DNA of 24,000 bases from an uncultured beta proteobacterium (GTDB lineage: Bacteria; Pseudomonadota; Gammaproteobacteria; Burkholderiales; Burkholderiaceae_F), in the NCBI GenBank assembly GCA_963724365.1, contig CAVRUR010000003.1:120528-144527 (forward strand), given 5' to 3'. Shown in pieces: positions 2,714 to 12,749 of this stretch. How positions within the stretch are numbered: position 1 is the first letter of the stretch; every line of letters starts with the position of its first letter. The position numbers and the translations under genes are program-made. The notes beneath the pieces are model-generated. The model ran no database searches, was not told where the DNA came from, and saw only the letters and a program-made list of their open reading frames with translations.

Positions 2714-5408
2714 CTAGCGATACGAGTAGGTCGCGTTCAGGTAGAACGCGCGGCCGAGCGGGCTGGCTGTCTGCGGATTGAAGCCGGCCTGGAACGCGGT
2801 GCTCTGCAGCGAGAATGGCGGTTCTTCGTCGAACAGGTTGCGCACGCCCAGCGCCAGTTGCCAACCGGCGAAGCCGGTGTAGCGGCCCTGCAGATCCCAG
2901 CTCGAGCTCGAGCCCACATGTCGCGTGCCGGAATCCGCATCCCGCAACGGCTCGGTGTAGCCGGCGGAGTAGACCTGCGCGAGGGTCACGCCCCAGGGGC
3001 CGCGGTTCCAGTCCAGCGTCAGCGTGCTGCGCCAGCGCGGGATCGCGTTGCCATAGGTCGCGTCACCGAGCCGTGACACATAGGTGACGCCGTCGATCTG
3101 CGTTTCCCATTGCCGCACGTAGGTGCCCTGCAGGCCGATGCGCACCTGGCCCCAGTCCTGCGGCGGGGCCAGCCAACTGGCGAAGACATCGACGCCGGAC
3201 GTCTGCGTCGTACCAAGGTTGAGCGGGGAGATATCGATCGCGACGATCGGACCGGGCAGGTTCGGGTAGACCGGATCGACCGGGCCGCGCGTGATGCGGT
3301 CGGGAAAGCGCTGGTAGTAGCGCATCAGATTTTCTTCCGTCAGCGGCTCGATGATGCCCTTCTGCTCGATCGCCCAGTAGTCGACCCCAAGCGAAAGACC
3401 GCGCACCGGCTCCCAGACGACGCCGAGGTTCCACTGCGTCGAGGTCTCGGGCTGCAGGTTCGGGTTGCCGCCGGAAAAGACTTCGACGAAGGCCAGGCAA
3501 TCGTCAACCAGTCCGGTCACGGGGCATCGGACGGGATCCTCGAAGATGGTGATGCCAGCAGACGCCGTCGGCTCGCTCAGCGTGTACAGCGGCGGCGCGC
3601 GGAAACCCTCTCCCCACGAGCCGCGCAGCAGCAGGGTCTGCAGCGGCTGCCAGCGCAGCGCGACCTTCGGGTTGGTGGTCGAGCCGAAGTCGCTGTATTC
3701 GTCGAAGCGCAGCGCGAGTTGGGCATCGAGTCCGCGCACGATCGGCACCGCGAGTTCCGCATAGAGCGAATAGACGCTGCGGCTGCCGCTGATGGCCTTC
3801 AGCTGATCGCCGAGCGGCGAATTGCCGGCCAGCACTTCAGGATCCCAGTCGTAGGACAGTCGCTCGCGTCGCGCCTCGGCGCCGAGCGCAAGCGCCAGCG
3901 GGCCTGCCGGCAGTTGTGCGATCTCGCGCGACGCAAACGCGTTGACGAGCGATGTCGTTCCGTCCGCGGTCTGTGGCGTGCCGCTGTAGGCGGTCGAGGC
4001 GAGCAGCGCGGACCCTTCCGGTCCCGAGGGTCCCCACGGATTGATCAGTCCGGTCGCTATCGCCGGGACGATCCGGTTCGCGTAGACGAAGCTGCCGCTG
4101 TAGGCGTTCTCCTGCTGGTTCCAGTTGTAGACGGCAGCGACGCTGTAGTCCCAGCCGGCGGCCCGACCCTCGGCGCCCAGCACATAGCGCTGCGTGTCGC
4201 TTGTGGTCGTATTTGTGCGCGCGCCGAGTTCGGTGGCCCGGAACGAGATCAACAGGCTGCCCGCGAGGCCGTTGGCTGCGGCGAAGTCGGTCGGGTAGTA
4301 CGGGCCGCCGGCCGGATAGCGCAACTGGCCGAACGAGGTCACCGGAGGGATCGCATTGGGCGCGATGGCAGACTCGAAGCCGATTGCGGCCGAGCAGCGC
4401 CTCGGCAAACAGGTCGAGGTCTGCGTTCAGTCGCCAGGTTCCGCGCACCAGCGCACTGGTGCGCTCGACCTCGGGCAGCAGGTCGATCGCCGGCGGCGTA
4501 GTCGTAGCCGCAGGCGAGATCGTTGTCGGGTGGGAATCGGATCGGAATTGCCGTCGGCGGCAGGCATCCGGCGGTCGCACGTCGGATTCAGGATGCGCCC
4601 GCGCGTGCGATCGAAGATGTTGGACGGGAAGGTGAACGGAGTGAGGATGTCGATGCCCTGGTCGGGCCGGTACGCGGTGCGCGCGAAGTCGCGATCGATC
4701 GCCCGCAGGGCCTGCTGCTTCTGGTAGGCCAGCGACGCGAAGACGTTGTAGCCGTCGCGCGTCGGATCGCCGTAGCCCGCCGTGATGTTCGACTTGCCCC
4801 TCGTTGCCGCCGCCGTGCTGGGTGGCAGTGAAGCCGCCGGCGACTTCGACGCCCTGGTAGTCCTTGCGCAGGATGAAGTTGATGACGCCGGCGATCGCGT
4901 CGGTGCCGTAGATGGCCGAGGCGCCATCCTTCAGCACTTCGACGCGCTCGATCGCCGCGAACGGGATCGAATTCAGGTCGACCGGACGCGCCGTCGAACG
5001 CGTAGTTGCCGAGACGCCGACCGTTGAGCAGCACGAGCGTCGATCCGCCGCCGAGACCGCGCAGGTTGGCGGACGACAATCCCGGGTTACCAAGCCGTTG
5101 CCGATCGTCTGCGAGATATTGAACGGATTGACGTTGGCCGGCACGCGCTCGAGCAGCTGTTCGACCGTGGTGACGCCGCTCCTCTCGATGTCCTCGCGCG
5201 TGAGCACCTGCACCGGCAGCGCCGACTCGACGTCGGTCTGCCGGATGTGCGAGCCGGTGACGACGACGCGCTCGAACGTCGTGGTCGGCGCCGCCTGCCC
5301 CTGCTCTTGCGCCTGCGCGGCGGCGGTCAGCATGAGCAGCGCCGCAAACGGGAACACGACTGCACCGCAGTCGCAAAAACGCCCACGCCACCGCACGAGC
5401 TGGAACAA
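2714..5408 (-). pseudogene. TonB-dependent outer-membrane receptor, at least 6 frameshifts as assembled
   Basis: The N-terminus in ORF 3837..5408 has a signal peptide ending AQA, then FERVVVTGSHI and plug-domain sequence. The plug continues in ORF 4588..5478 ([30 protein letters not shown]) and then back in the first frame ([37 protein letters not shown]). The barrel runs through ORF 4427..4927 and ORF 2714..4408. It ends with a typical C-terminal strand (GRAFYLNATYSYR). There is no N-terminal signalling (STN) extension. Confidence 0.85.
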
Positions 5409-5628
5409 GCGGCCCCCCGACCGATATTGCGGCCCCTCCGGCGGCTGTCTTTATTGCCGAAGGCACCCAAACCGTCAAGCGGGAAATTCACCGGCCGGAC
5501 AGCCGGCGGAGTGCAGCGCCGCGCCGCTCCAAGCAAGCTCGCGCCGCAGCCCGGAGGCTCCACGGAATCATCACGGCGCTCGGTTTTCCATGGAAAATGC
5601 GCACTGCTGGCGGAACCCGAGGGCGACG

Positions 5629-6183
5629 ATGAGCGACGTCACCGTCTTATTGCACCGCATCGCCGAGAACGACCGCGAGGCTCTCGACGCACTCTTTGAG
5701 TTGCTGTACGCCGACATCCACCGCATGGCGCGCGCACGGCTCGCCGAAAACGGCCCCTTGACGATGCTCGACACGACTTCGCTGGCGCACGAGGCCTACC
5801 TGCGGCTACACGGCGCCGGCCGCATCGACCTCGACTGCCGGGGCCGATTCATGGCCTACGTCTCGCAGGTCTTGCGCTCAGTCATCGTCGACTTCGCCCG
5901 CAAGCGCAACGCCGAGCGCCGCGGCGGCGGCCATGCAAACCTGACGCTCAACACCGAGATCGCCGGCTCGATCGGTAACCAGGACGAAGACATCATCCGC
6001 ATCAACGACGCCCTGGACGAGCTCGACAAGGTCGACCCGCGGCTGCGCAAGGTGGTCGAGATGCGCTATTTCGCCGGCCTGAGCGAGAAAGAGATCGCCG
6101 AAGCGCTCGACTTGAACGAACGCACCGTGCGGCGCGACTGGGAGCGCGCCCGGCTGCTGCTGTCGGTTTCGCTGAAACGCTGA
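5629..6183 (+). CDS. ECF sigma-70 family factor, PF07638 / TIGR02999-like (the ECF43-type group that pairs with Ser/Thr kinases)
   Basis: In-frame part of ORF 4912..6183. MSDVTVLLHRIAENDREALDALFELLYADIHRMARARLAENGPLTMLDTTSLAHEAYLRL matches the characteristic N-terminus of this family (M.DIT.LL....GD..A...L...VY.ELR..A...L......TL..TALV.EAYLRL). The C-terminal region 4 reads VVEMRYFAGLSEKEIAEALDLNERTVRRDWERARLLL. RBS GAGGG lies 5 nt upstream of the ATG at 5629. No anti-sigma gene is adjacent. Confidence 0.9.
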   Translation: MSDVTVLLHRIAENDREALDALFELLYADIHRMARARLAENGPLTMLDTTSLAHEAYLRLHGAGRIDLDCRGRFMAYVSQVLRSVIVDFARKRNAERRGGGHANLTLNTEIAGSIGNQDEDIIRINDALDELDKVDPRLRKVVEMRYFAGLSEKEIAEALDLNERTVRRDWERARLLLSVSLKR

Positions 6184-6190
6184 CACCTAC

Positions 6191-6217
6191 TGTCCGGTTT
6201 TCCAACAGAAATACGTC
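6191..6217 (+). promoter_or_regulatory. candidate ECF-type promoter P1 (TGTCCGGTTT-N13-CGTC) in the sigma-kinase intergenic gap
   Basis: TGTCCGGTTT at 6191-6200, a 13-nt spacer, then CGTC at 6214-6217. This is 8 nt after the sigma stop and about 32 nt before the kinase ATG. The same 10-mer, spacing and CGTC recur at 9260 and 9523. Confidence 0.6.
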
Positions 6218-6248
6218 TTTGCGGTGAGGGAGAGTTACGCCCACGCGC

Positions 6249-9215
6249 ATGATCACAAGTCGCGCACTGACCGCACAGGACTGGCACCGGCTTAATGATT
6301 TGCTGGCGGCGGCGCTCGAGCTTGAAGCCTCGAAGCGCGCGAGCTGGCTGGCCGCGCTGCCGGAGTCGGCGAGCGACCTGAGACCGCTGCTGGCCGAGCT
6401 GCTGACGAGTGTCGGTGCGACCGGTTTCGACGATACCAGGCAGACCCTGCAACCGGTTGTGCAGCTGGCCTCAGCTGCGATTTCTGCGATGCGTCGGGAG
6501 CAGGCCGGCGACCGCATCGGCCCGTGGCAGCTGGAGCGGCTGCTGGCTGAGGGTGGCATGGGGGCGGTGTGGGTGGCGCAGCGTGCCGACGGCGTGATGC
6601 AGCGGCGCGCGGCGCTCAAGCTGCCGCGCGCCGAGTGGGTCGATCATGGGTTAAGCCAGCGCCTGGCGCGCGAGCGCGCGATCCTCGCGCGCCTGCAGCA
6701 TCCGCATATCGCGGTGCTGTTCGATGCCGGGCTGGCCGATGGCGGCCGGCCGTACCTGGCGCTCGAGTACGTCGATGGCGTGCCGATCGATGCGTACTGC
6801 CAGGGCCGTGAGCTCAAGGACGTGCTGCGGCTGATGGTGCAGGTCGTGCGCGCCGTGGCCTACGCGCATGGCCAGCTCGTGATCCACCGCGATCTCAAAC
6901 CCGCCAACGTACTGGTGATGGCCGACGGTTCTCCGAAGCTGCTCGACTTCGGCATCTCCAAGCTGATCGAGGGTGACACCACGACCGCGGAGGCCACAGC
7001 GTTGACACGGCTGGCGGGACGTCCGATGACGCTCGCCTACGCCGCGCCCGAGCAGGTGCTGGCGCTGCCGATCACGGTGTCGGCGGATGTCTATGCGCTG
7101 GGGGTGATGCTGGCCGAGCTGCTCGCCGGTGCGCGGCTGTACCGATCGCAGGAGCCGCGTGCGCTGGAAGCCGAGATCCTCACCGGCGATCTGCGCGTGC
7201 CGAGCGAGATCGCCAGCGACAAGGTGCGTGCCCGCGCGCTCAAGGGCGATCTGGATGCGATCGTGGCCACGGCGCTCAAGCGCCAGCCGCACGAGCGCTA
7301 CGACAGTGCCGCCGCACTGGCCGACGATCTGGAGCGCTACCTCGACGGCGAGCCGGTGCGCGCCCGCCCCGACAGCCGCGCCTATCGGCTGAAGAAGTTC
7401 ATCGCCCGCAACACGCTGGCGGTGGGTGCGGCCAGCGCCATCGTGCTGGCGCTGGGCATCGGCCTGGGGCTCGCGCTGTGGCAGGGCAATGAAGCGCGCA
7501 CTCAGGCGCAGCGCGCCACCGCGCTCAACACCTTCGTGCTGGGCCTGATCCGCACCGCCGACCCCAACGCATCGGTTCAGACCAAGGCCGCCGACGTGGC
7601 CATGCTGCACTCCATCGAAGACCGCATCGACCACGACTTCAAGGGCTCGCCCGACCAGCTGCTGCAACTCAGAGTGACGGTCGGTGAAGCCTACAAAAAC
7701 CGTGGTGAGATGGTCGCGGCGCAGCGCGTCTTCCAGCGAGCGGTCGACGATGCAAGTTCCTACCTGCGCGCAGATGACCTGCGCCTGCTGACCGCGCAGG
7801 TTCGCGCAGCCGACGAGCGACTTATCGTCTCGACCGCGGCGGCCGGGCAGCTTGATCGTGCCATCGAGATCTTGCGCCCAAAGAGTCGCGACAACCTCGA
7901 GGCAGCCGAACTCCTGCTGGATGCGCTGCTGATCCGAAGCACACTGGTGAACGAATACGGCGTGCCAGCTTACGTCACACCGGAAGAGAACACCCGGACT
8001 GTCGACGAAATGGAACGCCTGGCGCTCGACCACTTTGGCCCGGGCAGCCGTCAGCATCTGCGTGCGGTCGGCGCAAAGTCAGGCCTGGTCAACCTGCGAA
8101 GCGGCCCCGAAGCCGCCTATCCGATCCTGGCTACGGCGATGGAGCAGGCGCTCTTGCGCAACGATGGGGTGATCGACAGCGTGGACTTTCTCAACGCCAG
8201 CGCCGTCCGGGCCGTCCTTGACTGCGCCAACGGCAAAGTCCCCCAAGGGCTCGACACGCTGTGGAGGCTCAACTCGGCGGTGCGCACGTCCCACGGCCCG
8301 ACCAGTTACCTGCTCGAAGCGATCCTGCAGGGCATCGCCGACTGTCTCGCCGCGGTCGACGACAAGACGGCGTTTGGCTGGGTGCAGGACGCCTACGACA
8401 TCGCGGCCGCCCGCGAGCGGCCGCCCTCGACCAACCTGCTGCATCGTGCAATTGCGGCGTGGGACTGGTCGACGGGCGCACGGGACGTCGAGGCCGCCGA
8501 ACGCTACTACCAGAAGGCGATCGAGAACGTACAGGCATTCCCCGAAGAGGCAATCCGCGACCGCCTGACGGCCGGCCTGCGCCTCGGTCGCGTTTGCCAG
8601 CTGGCGCAGCGCGGTGACGCGGCGGATGCCGCACGCGTAGCCGAGCCGCTGATCGCAGGCTTCAACGCCGACTACGCGAGGATCAACCGGCTGACGCCGA
8701 ATCAGGGAGCGATCTGGATCTGTTACAGCGACGCGCTGCGCCAGCTCGGCCGCTACGACGAGGCGATCAAGGCCGCGCAGACCTTTGCGGAACGGTGTCG
8801 CGCGATCCTGCGCTTTGCGCCGGGTGCACGCTGCGAGCACCGCGCGCTTTCGGCCAAGGCGGTTGTCCAGCTCGACGCGGGCCGGCTCGCGGAGGCGCGC
8901 GCGACGCTGGACGAGCGCATGAAGCTCGCTCCGAAGACGGAGGGCGATCCGCGCTTCCCTCTCGCCTTTGCACGCGTGATGATCGCGACCGGACGCGGCG
9001 CCGAAGCGATCGATGTGACGCGCGACAACTACGGCGGCTGGCTGTCGACGCAGCCAGCGAGTCCCTATACCGCCGAAGCGCTGTACTGGTTCGGCCGGGC
9101 CTACCAGGCCGCCGGCGACAAGCGCGGCGACTGGATGGTCCCGCAGGCCCGACGGGCCCTGGTGAAGTCGCCGGTCTCGTATCACAAGACACTGGCCGCC
9201 GGCATGGCGTTCTGA
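6249..9215 (+). CDS. membrane Hanks-type Ser/Thr protein kinase with a large extracytoplasmic helical (TPR-like) domain
   Basis: Intact 988-aa ORF. Kinase motifs are the Gly loop EGGMGAVW (aa 101-108), AALK (K124), HRDLKPAN (213-220), DFG (233-235) and APE (266-268). A single TM helix LAVGAASAIVLALGIGLGLALW spans about aa 390-411. About 575 aa of Ala/Leu/Arg-rich helical repeat sequence follows. The N-terminal ~90 aa (W.RLNDLL..AL.L....R..WL) is typical of kinases encoded next to PF07638 sigma factors. Confidence 0.9.
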   Translation: MITSRALTAQDWHRLNDLLAAALELEASKRASWLAALPESASDLRPLLAELLTSVGATGFDDTRQTLQPVVQLASAAISAMRREQAGDRIGPWQLERLLAEGGMGAVWVAQRADGVMQRRAALKLPRAEWVDHGLSQRLARERAILARLQHPHIAVLFDAGLADGGRPYLALEYVDGVPIDAYCQGRELKDVLRLMVQVVRAVAYAHGQLVIHRDLKPANVLVMADGSPKLLDFGISKLIEGDTTTAEATALTRLAGRPMTLAYAAPEQVLALPITVSADVYALGVMLAELLAGARLYRSQEPRALEAEILTGDLRVPSEIASDKVRARALKGDLDAIVATALKRQPHERYDSAAALADDLERYLDGEPVRARPDSRAYRLKKFIARNTLAVGAASAIVLALGIGLGLALWQGNEARTQAQRATALNTFVLGLIRTADPNASVQTKAADVAMLHSIEDRIDHDFKGSPDQLLQLRVTVGEAYKNRGEMVAAQRVFQRAVDDASSYLRADDLRLLTAQVRAADERLIVSTAAAGQLDRAIEILRPKSRDNLEAAELLLDALLIRSTLVNEYGVPAYVTPEENTRTVDEMERLALDHFGPGSRQHLRAVGAKSGLVNLRSGPEAAYPILATAMEQALLRNDGVIDSVDFLNASAVRAVLDCANGKVPQGLDTLWRLNSAVRTSHGPTSYLLEAILQGIADCLAAVDDKTAFGWVQDAYDIAAARERPPSTNLLHRAIAAWDWSTGARDVEAAERYYQKAIENVQAFPEEAIRDRLTAGLRLGRVCQLAQRGDAADAARVAEPLIAGFNADYARINRLTPNQGAIWICYSDALRQLGRYDEAIKAAQTFAERCRAILRFAPGARCEHRALSAKAVVQLDAGRLAEARATLDERMKLAPKTEGDPRFPLAFARVMIATGRGAEAIDVTRDNYGGWLSTQPASPYTAEALYWFGRAYQAAGDKRGDWMVPQARRALVKSPVSYHKTLAAGMAF

Positions 9216-9221
9216 CCGGTG

Positions 9222-9239
9222 GCCGGGCGAGAGCCCGGC
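9222..9239 (+). terminator. GC-rich hairpin just after the kinase stop (weak terminator or attenuator candidate)
   Basis: GCCGGGC-gaga-GCCCGGC forms a perfect 7-bp stem with a 4-nt loop. It is followed only by a poor U-tract (gcaccgaattct). Confidence 0.3.
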
Positions 9240-9259
9240 GCACCGAATTCTCCGGCCCA

Positions 9260-9286
9260 TGTCCGGTTTGGCGTCCTCCTTGCGTC
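9260..9286 (+). promoter_or_regulatory. candidate ECF-type promoter P2 (TGTCCGGTTT-N13-CGTC) for small ORF A
   Basis: TGTCCGGTTT at 9260-9269, a 13-nt spacer, then CGTC at 9283-9286. This lies about 50 nt upstream of the ATG at 9337. Confidence 0.6.
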
Positions 9287-9336
9287 CCTACCAGCAAGAG
9301 CCCACTACGCGGGCTTCAACCGAACGGAGGGACACC

Positions 9337-9504
9337 ATGAAGAACTCGATGATCAAGCAAGTGGCCGGATTGGCCGCCGCGGCGTGCACGACGCTGGTGA
9401 TCTTCTCGGCCGTCGCCGCCCTGGCCGACTCAGACCGCGCCGCGTTGCACCAGGCCAAAGTCGCACCGGCCACGGTCGTGGCGACTGCGTCCGTGGTCCG
9501 CTAG
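9337..9504 (+). CDS. small hypothetical protein A (55 aa), signal-peptide or TM-anchor-like
   Basis: Internal ATG of ORF 9259..9504, with RBS GGAGGG 5 nt upstream. Sequence: [55 protein letters not shown]. It has a basic N-region, a ~20-aa hydrophobic core, an ALA|D site like a signal peptidase I site, and a 25-aa tail. It is paralogous to ORF B immediately downstream. Confidence 0.6.
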
Positions 9505-9522
9505 GCAGAAGTTCCAGGCGAA

Positions 9523-9549
9523 TGTCCGGTTTCGCTTCCGAACCACGTC
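9523..9549 (+). promoter_or_regulatory. candidate ECF-type promoter P3 (TGTCCGGTTT-N13-CGTC) for small ORF B
   Basis: TGTCCGGTTT at 9523-9532, a 13-nt spacer, then CGTC at 9546-9549. This lies about 50 nt upstream of the ATG at 9600. The sequence downstream of CGTC (CGTCCCTAC..ACAAGAGCCC...GGGCT...CGAAC.GGAG) aligns with that of P2. Confidence 0.6.
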
Positions 9550-9599
9550 CCTACATACAAGAGCCCCCCGTCGGGCTCGCACGAACAGGAGAAGACCTC

Positions 9600-9773
9600 A
9601 TGACGAACTCTTACCTCAAGCACGCAGTGGCCCTGGGCGCAGCCGTCACGACGACTCTGATTCTCTTCAGCGGCGTGGTTGCGCTGGCAGATGATGACAA
9701 GGCCGCGCTGGTCGCCGCCAAATCGGTGCGCGGCACGCAGGTCGTGCAGGCGACGTCGGCGGCGCAGCGCTAG
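9600..9773 (+). CDS. small hypothetical protein B (57 aa), paralog of A
   Basis: Internal ATG of ORF 9219..9773, with RBS AGGAG 8 nt upstream. Sequence: [57 protein letters not shown]. The architecture matches A, and identity by eye is roughly 40-45%. The shared core is TTL..FS.V.ALAD.D(R/K)AAL..AK. Confidence 0.6.
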
Positions 9774-9790
9774 TCCAACGTCGCTCGAAA

Positions 9791-9826
9791 GCAAAACGGC
9801 CGCGCGTGCGGCCGTTTTGCTTTTCT
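9791..9826. terminator. bidirectional rho-independent terminator between small ORF B (+) and gcvP (-)
   Basis: GCAAAACGGCCGC-gcgt-GCGGCCGTTTTGC forms a perfect 13-bp stem. TTTTCT follows on the plus strand. The stem supplies an A/T run for the minus strand. Confidence 0.8.
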
Positions 9827-9835
9827 GGTGCAGCG

Positions 9836-12749
<2,914 letters not shown>

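Follow-up and report, generated by a model that had tools for sequence, protein, structure and literature searches.

Introduction

Sigma factors of the extracytoplasmic function (ECF) group ECF43 lack the acidic DAED/DxxD motif of region σ2.2, and the corresponding threonine is phosphorylated in EcfP and EcfK (PMC8999054, PMC13147305). EcfP from Vibrio parahaemolyticus, the partner of PknT, is an intrinsically inactive sigma factor that receives its phosphate on a threonine in σ2.2 (Iyer et al. 2020, reviewed in PMC8999054). In Xanthomonas citri, PknS, which carries a conserved N-terminal extension of 83 residues, was proven to be the kinase that phosphorylates EcfK (PMC13147305). Kinase-linked ECF groups are usually devoid of an anti-sigma gene (PMC7826278). 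Here, we describe a sigma factor gene and the adjoining gene for a membrane-spanning Ser/Thr kinase of the Hanks type at positions 5629 to 9215 of a 24,000-nucleotide stretch of betaproteobacterial DNA (the window). It is located on contig C3 (CAVRUR010000003.1, positions 120,528 to 144,527) of a metagenome-assembled genome (MAG; GCA_963724365.1) comprising 3.49 Mb in 18 contigs at a completeness of 86.8%, and has a GC content of about 67%. The related MAGs are named "uncultured beta proteobacterium", "Burkholderiaceae bacterium" or "Rubrivivax sp.".

The two genes very probably form a signalling switch of the ECF43 class, in which the sigma factor would be activated by the neighbouring kinase. 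This had been proposed in an earlier note on the same DNA, whose coordinates and gene content for both genes proved right. The proposal gains support from the family of the sigma factor, from a PknS-like kinase that includes the N-terminal extension, from a non-acidic σ2.2 motif with threonine, and from the lack of an anti-sigma gene, phosphotransfer itself being predicted from these features. The pair is organized as follows.

5629..6183, forward strand: gene for a putative ECF43-type sigma factor, 184 residues (TIGR02999, PF07638, conservation among homologues, alignment with EcfK peptides)
6249..9215, forward strand: gene for a PknS-like receptor Ser/Thr kinase, 988 residues (Pkinase match, PDB match 9eed_A, invariant catalytic residues)
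6249..6419, forward strand: helical N-terminal extension of the kinase with a flexible linker behind it (AlphaFold2 model, alignment with PknS residues 2-81)
6525..7343, forward strand: Hanks kinase catalytic domain, residues 93-365 (Pkinase match, PDB alignment, motifs, AlphaFold2 model)
7410..7481, forward strand: single transmembrane helix, residues ~388-411 (hydropathy, continuous model helix 391-436)
7575..9203, forward strand: predicted periplasmic superhelix resembling tetratricopeptide repeats (TPR), 27 helices, residues 443-985 (AlphaFold2, Foldseek, Pfam TPR matches)

The sigma factor and its predicted phosphorylation sites

The sigma factor matches TIGR02999 with 164.4 bits (cut-off 126.15) over profile positions 1-182 of 183, and PF07638 with 139.5 bits. 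These full-length matches above cut-off bear out the family type given in the earlier note. Its start at 5629 agrees with that of 184-residue homologues of up to 97% identity sharing the same methionine. A longer reading frame from 4912 was rejected as an artefact of the high GC content, given that the homologues have 184 residues and begin at that methionine. The family is patchy in the order: only 11 of 121 sampled genomes encode TIGR02999 sigma factors above cut-off. From the family match, the motif described below, the adjacency of the kinase gene and the relationship of the kinase to PknS, we infer that the protein is a member of ECF43. The adjacent genes were inspected for an anti-sigma gene and, in agreement with the earlier note, none lies between or beside the two genes. 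The neighbours of the sigma gene are a divergent gene for a TonB-dependent receptor and the kinase gene, which starts 65 bp downstream of the sigma stop codon.

A sequence search with the sigma factor against the Protein Data Bank (PDB) returned nothing at E<=0.001, and the protein was therefore aligned to canonical ECF factors by way of the EcfK peptides and of the DxxDxxQE pattern from the literature; the ECF43 consensus at the σ2.2 phospho-acceptor site was taken as QTTA. Where ordinary ECF sigma factors carry the acidic DxxD, the σ2.2 motif reads D48-T49-T50-S51-L-A-H-E, with the DTTS codons at 5770-5781. The acidic patch is thus replaced in part only, as the first aspartate (D48) is retained and the second acidic position is occupied by serine. 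The EcfK phosphopeptide AGLQAT(p)ELVHEAWMR, reported in the supplement of that study, aligns without gaps to L47..R59 of the sigma factor (L47-D-T-T-S-L-A-H-E-A-Y-L-R59) and places T50 (codon 5776-5778) on phospho-Thr51. T50 hence aligns as the equivalent of the proven EcfK acceptor T51, and it is a threonine in 117 of the 121 homologues compared (66-97% identity). Because of this alignment and conservation, the candidates T49, T50 and S51 of the earlier note can be narrowed to T50, and a second candidate, T106, is added. The EcfK linker peptide (..V-T104-L-T106-I-S108..) fits best, in a local alignment, on L105-T106-L107-N108 of the sigma factor, so that T106 (codon 5944-5946) probably corresponds to the second site on which EcfK function depends. 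Within the same set of homologues T106 is conserved in 118, T109 in 119 and D48 in 113 sequences.

The kinase and its membrane topology

In profile searches the Pkinase domain covers residues 94-358 (E 4e-36). All catalytic residues are present (K124, E142, HRDLKPAN at 213-220, DFG at 233-235, APE at 266-268, D280 and R350) and invariant or nearly so in 78 homologues, with E142, D280 and R350 strictly invariant. The same holds for T253 in the activation loop. The description as a Ser/Thr kinase with all motifs thus stands for the catalytic residues and requires a small correction in the P-loop, where the first glycine is an alanine (A100-E-G-G-M-G). This alanine is conserved in the family and is the sole deviation from the canonical set.

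The best solved relative is 9eed_A, residues 1-364 of X. citri PknS (E 2.5e-44). It matches query residues 5-366, so that the N-terminal extension is included in the relationship. In the AlphaFold2 (AF2) model the extension forms three helices (9-23, 27-35 and 39-57), followed by a linker of low confidence; W12, L15, L19 and W33 are invariant or nearly so, and the extension matches nothing in Pfam at E<=1 and nothing in NCBIfam. The model of the whole kinase (predicted local distance difference test, pLDDT, 83) arranges the three N-terminal helices, the linker, the kinase fold, a long transmembrane helix and an all-helical C-terminal half in this order. The segment at ~384-412, with a hydropathy peak of 2.26 at 390-392, is the only hydrophobic one outside the kinase fold and is preceded on its N-terminal side by the basic sequence RLKKFIAR; a weaker second peak, at 270-275, belongs to the kinase domain. 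The single transmembrane helix of the earlier note was thereby recovered.

A plot of GC content at third codon positions suggested a change of frame at 7720-8140. This was rejected, since the frame is open and homologues of up to 98% DNA identity align through the region. For about 400 nt GC peaks at codon position 1 instead of 3, a composition effect of helical repeats rich in Ala, Asp and Arg.

The extracytoplasmic TPR sensor

As the earlier note had described, the kinase carries a large helical extracytoplasmic domain. Residues 412-988 (about 575 residues) are all-helical in the model, and residues 433-988 modelled alone from 85 sequences gave 27 helices at a pLDDT of 93.9 and a predicted template modelling score of 0.91. 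The note had not been able to place this domain in a specific ligand-binding family. AF2, Foldseek and Pfam all identify a TPR superhelix, i.e. the same class as in PknS. Foldseek retrieved only TPR superhelices from the PDB, among them the OGT TPR domain, APC/C TPR subunits and TSK, with E ~1e-5 and modest TM-scores of 0.3-0.5. Such scores are typical for solenoids that differ in superhelical pitch. The isolated domain also matched TPR_12 with 31.1 bits (cut-off 30.1) and TPR_2 with 29.5 bits (cut-off 27).

Four near-invariant cysteines (C659, C699, C850 and C862) fit the predicted periplasmic location. A HMMER search of 1.84 billion representative proteins delimited the sequence family of the sensor to 155 clusters at E<=0.001, and its full-length matches are mostly located at ~420-985 of kinases of ~950-1015 residues or on fragments truncated by contig ends. 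Thus, the fold class of the sensor is ordinary, whereas by sequence its family is limited to this kinase lineage. Because the domain offers a TPR surface, its partner may be a protein or peptide rather than a small molecule.

Promoter motif and predicted outputs

The motif TGTCCGGTTT-N13-CGTC occurs in three exact copies in the window, in which 0.23 would be expected, and in four in the whole genome, three of them in the module.

6191..6217, forward strand: promoter-like motif P1 upstream of the kinase gene, in the 65-bp spacer that follows the sigma gene (exact motif copy, same position in relatives)
9260..9504, forward strand: promoter copy P2 (9260-9286) and gene for a 55-residue small membrane or exported protein (9337-9504; motif scan, protein family behind kinase genes of relatives)
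9523..9773, forward strand: promoter copy P3 (9523-9549) and gene for a paralogous 57-residue small protein (9600-9773; motif scan, relatives)

The fourth copy is located far from the window (G000:C3:402185; locus 402185-402624, L030) and precedes the gene for a 104-residue protein with a signal-peptide-like N-terminus and two cysteines, for which Pfam and NCBIfam yielded nothing but a sub-threshold match to DUF6968. A homologue of this protein is encoded directly behind the kinase pair of a relative (L022), which ties the distal motif copy to the module and makes the 104-residue protein a probable member of the regulon. Relatives carry the motif at the same places and one of them (L028) also once before the sigma gene.

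The 55- and 57-residue proteins have no match in Pfam or NCBIfam. They share a hydrophobic helix (TTLV.FS.V..LAD.DKAAL), preceded by only about 8 residues and followed by a variable tail, and belong to a family conserved behind the kinase genes of relatives. By its sequence, the segment resembles a working membrane helix rather than a signal peptide that is cleaved off. The TonB receptor gene was not counted among the outputs, as the motif scan found no copy in front of it.

No terminator was seen between the sigma and kinase genes, a simple scan for sigma-70 promoters found no match in 5300-9900, and a consensus for EcfK-dependent promoters was not found in the literature examined. The unit probably works with a basal sigma-kinase transcript, on top of which the sigma factor would amplify the kinase and induce small envelope proteins. 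At ~9793-9825, between the second small reading frame on the forward strand and the end of gcvP on the reverse strand, a GC-rich hairpin is flanked by a run of A and a run of T. It was missed by a simple terminator scan and is probably a bidirectional terminator that closes the unit.

Tandem kinases and the hybrid kinase gene

Sigma and kinase genes are likewise neighbours in relatives as well as in distant phyla (Blastocatellia, Planctomycetota). The kinase family has undergone expansion in this genus, and three relatives (L022, L023 and L024) carry two tandem kinase genes after one sigma gene. Between the window kinase and the paralogous A-type kinases, DNA identity amounts to about 80% in the cytoplasmic half and about 50% in the sensor half. 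Since the cytoplasmic halves stay alike while the sensor halves diverge, the arrangement would fit several sensors feeding one sigma factor. Long tandem arrays of the kinase family were also observed on single contigs of other genomes of the genus (G008:C7:103714-119442 and G016:C8:100532-106951); many of their copies contain internal TGA stops, due to either decay or assembly errors.

Comparison with the closest genome, L023, which shows 90% DNA identity in the flanks and contains a sigma-kinaseA-small ORF-kinaseB array (5832-12280; ORF, open reading frame), revealed that the kinase gene of the window is composed of two parts.

6428..6434, forward strand: recombination breakpoint in the kinase gene, A-type upstream and B-type downstream relative to the two-kinase array of L023 (informative sites, 300-nt identity bins)

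Informative sites are A-type up to 6428 with one exception (6317) and mostly B-type from 6434 onwards. Hence, the sigma gene, P1 and the N-terminal helical domain are of the A-type, while the kinase domain, transmembrane helix, sensor and downstream small reading frames are of the B-type. The switch falls at kinase codons ~60-62, within the flexible linker that follows the N-terminal helices, and the gene looks as if it arose by a deletion through recombination between tandem paralogues.

One might object that the hybrid merely reflects the collapse of two tandem paralogues during assembly, or that the pair is only a remnant, either decaying or mis-assembled. The two kinases behind the sigma gene in the three relatives, the clean switch from A-type to B-type and the error-rich, incomplete assembly would be in line with this. 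However, the hybrid gene has 988 uninterrupted codons and aligns with homologues over its whole length, and the breakpoint lies in a flexible linker, exactly where a functional fusion would be expected. Moreover, a protein from an independent metagenome contig (P0123) has the same length of 988 residues and is 96% identical in the sensor half, which argues that the gene is real. We therefore regard a collapsed or decaying pair as very improbable.

In the hybrid, the N-terminal extension travels with the sigma gene and not with the kinase and sensor part. This raises the question whether the three-helix domain is an anti-sigma or docking domain that sequesters the unphosphorylated sigma factor at the membrane until phosphorylation releases it, in addition to control by charge. 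Conservation of a helical extension of ~60-80 residues from PknS to this kinase, including its nearly invariant W12, L15, L19 and W33, would suit such a role, and the authors of the PknS study left the role of the extension open. Yet the extension shows no similarity to anti-sigma domains, as no Pfam family matched at E<=1, and in the published systems loss of the kinase leads to loss and not to gain of output. Sequestration thus appears decidedly unlikely.

The co-inheritance of extension and sigma gene also hints at a sigma-docking adaptor, and one may speculate, with considerable reservation, on a broader scheme. One or two nearly identical ECF43 sigma factors would integrate several paralogous kinases, each kinase would have its own sigma-dependent small membrane protein, attached to the sensor or transmembrane region as feedback partner or co-receptor, and the N-terminal domain would serve as the docking adaptor. 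If true, this would be an architecture of many sensors on one sigma factor with small-protein feedback, which we did not find described for ECF43 in the literature examined.

A second module was observed at the start of contig C2 (G000:C2:1-3100, L031). A further kinase is represented there by its periplasmic part, which is interrupted by frameshifts and stops. The module also includes a sigma gene whose product is about 94% identical to the one described here and is split over three frames, and a promoter copy with one mismatch at 2659. Thereafter only a vestige of a kinase start is left (ATG ATT TGG AGT TGA), followed by a gene for beta-carbonic anhydrase.

Proposed mechanism

What is observed of the pair are the families of its proteins, their motifs and the conservation of these, the architecture, the fold and the distribution of the promoter; from this we infer the following course of events. 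The sigma factor, as first produced, would have little affinity for core RNA polymerase, its second acidic σ2.2 position being serine and the neighbouring residue threonine. The membrane kinase would sense a periplasmic signal, most likely a protein or peptide partner, by means of its TPR superhelix and autophosphorylate in the activation loop, in which T253 is invariant. It would then phosphorylate the sigma factor at T50 and probably also at T106 in the linker, and the added negative charge would allow the sigma factor to dock on the β′ subunit. The resulting holoenzyme is predicted to read TGTCCGGTTT-N13-CGTC promoters and thereby to drive the kinase gene in a positive feedback, the two small single-pass membrane proteins and the distal exported protein of 104 residues. 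Three PP2C phosphatase genes are present elsewhere in the genome, and their products could reset the switch.

Several observations weigh against this scheme or its details. D48 preserves one residue of the acidic patch and might confer basal activity on the sigma factor. The T51A variant of EcfK still complements (PMC13147305), for which reason a model based on a single site is too simple. The equivalence of T106 is less certain than that of T50, as it relies on a short local alignment that requires one indel upstream. At the level of transcription, this genome has only a degenerate motif copy upstream of the sigma gene, and this sigma factor and its 94%-identical paralogue on contig C2 are not separable as readers of the promoters.

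The first two of these points would also suit a sigma factor that is largely competent by itself and controlled by its amount, the kinase only tuning it or acting mainly on other substrates. The conservation of D48 in the great majority of homologues is in line with this, as is the tolerance of T51A by EcfK, which likewise contains one acidic residue in its QATE motif. Furthermore, the three PP2C phosphatases and four other Hanks kinase loci in the genome indicate Ser/Thr signalling beyond this pair. In contrast, T50 and T106 are almost invariant, the adjacency of sigma and kinase genes has been kept from the genus to other phyla, and the pattern of well-conserved cytoplasmic and diverged sensor halves among the paralogues fits a shared cytoplasmic substrate. 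We consider constitutive competence unlikely and favour activation of the sigma factor by the kinase.

With regard to the acidic residue, 15.8% of ECF43 members retain one beside the phosphorylation site, at a patch position different from that of D48 (PMC13147305).

Neighbouring genes and frameshifts

The module is bordered by the TonB receptor gene on one side and, beyond the small protein genes, by gcvP on the other.

2714..5408, reverse strand: divergent gene for a TonB-dependent receptor, with six disrupting insertions at 4380-5089 (plug and barrel Pfam matches on two frames, synteny)

Adjacency of receptor and sigma gene is preserved in four relatives. The substrate class of the receptor is not assignable, with all NCBIfam scores far under their cut-offs.

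The window was compared with the relative L024 at a DNA identity of 80-84%; the contig names of L024, of the type NODE_..._cov_..., indicate a short-read assembly. This revealed 16 uncompensated insertions, of which six are located in the receptor gene and ten in gcvP; fifteen measure 1-2 nt each and the remaining one 7 nt. Those in the receptor gene are insertions of 1-2 nt at 4380, 4492, 4575, 4787, 4984 and 5089. In gcvP, insertions of 1-2 nt at 10507, 10822, 10866, 11078, 12086, 12257, 12300, 12533 and 12596 are accompanied by the 7-nt insertion at 11962. All flanking indels are insertions, clustered and mostly outside long homopolymers, and the other 1.7 kb of the receptor gene are clean. 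In contrast, the coding sequences of the sigma factor and the kinase contain no uncompensated insertion; their sole indels, in the kinase linker, sum to +6 nt.

The flanking insertions look like local consensus errors, because they are clustered and one-sided, because the sigma gene of contig C2 shows the same kind of breakage and because the genome is 86.8% complete. The intact pair among frameshifted neighbours, as pointed out in the earlier note, is thus a correct observation, but the contrast most likely stems from clustered assembly errors and not from biology. As the frameshifts are probably assembly errors, the intactness of the pair carries no conclusion on selection.

Comparison with known systems

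The closest described system is EcfK/PknS from X. citri, a member of ECF43 (PMC13147305). Both pairs combine a TIGR02999/PF07638-type sigma factor with a non-acidic σ2.2 motif and a threonine at the phosphorylation site (T50 for T51), a conserved threonine in the σ2-σ4 linker (T106 here) and an adjoining gene for a single-pass Hanks kinase with an N-terminal helical extension and a periplasmic TPR domain. The differences concern both proteins and their context. The motif is DTTS here and QATE in EcfK. The kinase comprises 988 residues compared to 833 in PknS and has a longer TPR superhelix of about 13 hairpins, and the relatives of the present pair carry several kinases per sigma factor. The host is a Burkholderiaceae-like betaproteobacterium instead of a member of the Xanthomonadales. 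Finally, a link to type VI secretion (T6SS) is lacking, as the sheath gene tssC (PF05943) had no match in this 86.8% complete genome, and as outputs we predict small envelope proteins along with the kinase. The T6SS link is peculiar to X. citri and is not a defining trait of the class.

EcfP, like the sigma factor described here, belongs to the type with threonine in σ2.2. The second threonine of its STTA motif is phosphorylated, and this second threonine is conserved in DTTS. In contrast to the present sigma factor with its retained D48, the patch of EcfP is free of any acidic residue. The EcfP regulon confers polymyxin resistance, whereas no such genes carry the motif here.

On the output side, the one-helix proteins of 55-57 residues, encoded beside the sensor and apparently driven by the promoter of the pathway itself, are reminiscent of the feedback that small membrane proteins exert on sensor kinases, as MgrB does on PhoQ. 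This is an analogy only, since there is no sequence relation and the sensor here is a Hanks kinase and not a histidine kinase.

The mechanism class has been established by EcfP/PknT and EcfK/PknS, and the pair itself adds little to it. The interest of the locus is modest and lies in a regulon of envelope proteins defined by a motif, in arrays of several kinases and in a hybrid whose N-terminal domain is set apart from the remainder of the kinase. It offers a compact test case with both EcfK-type sites, T50 and T106, and a tiny regulon marked by an exact promoter motif, whose products, small proteins of the envelope, may act back on the sensor. Its natural variation, i.e. tandem kinases with diverged sensors and a domain-swap hybrid, could help to explain the N-terminal extension and the TPR sensor that this kinase has in common with PknS.

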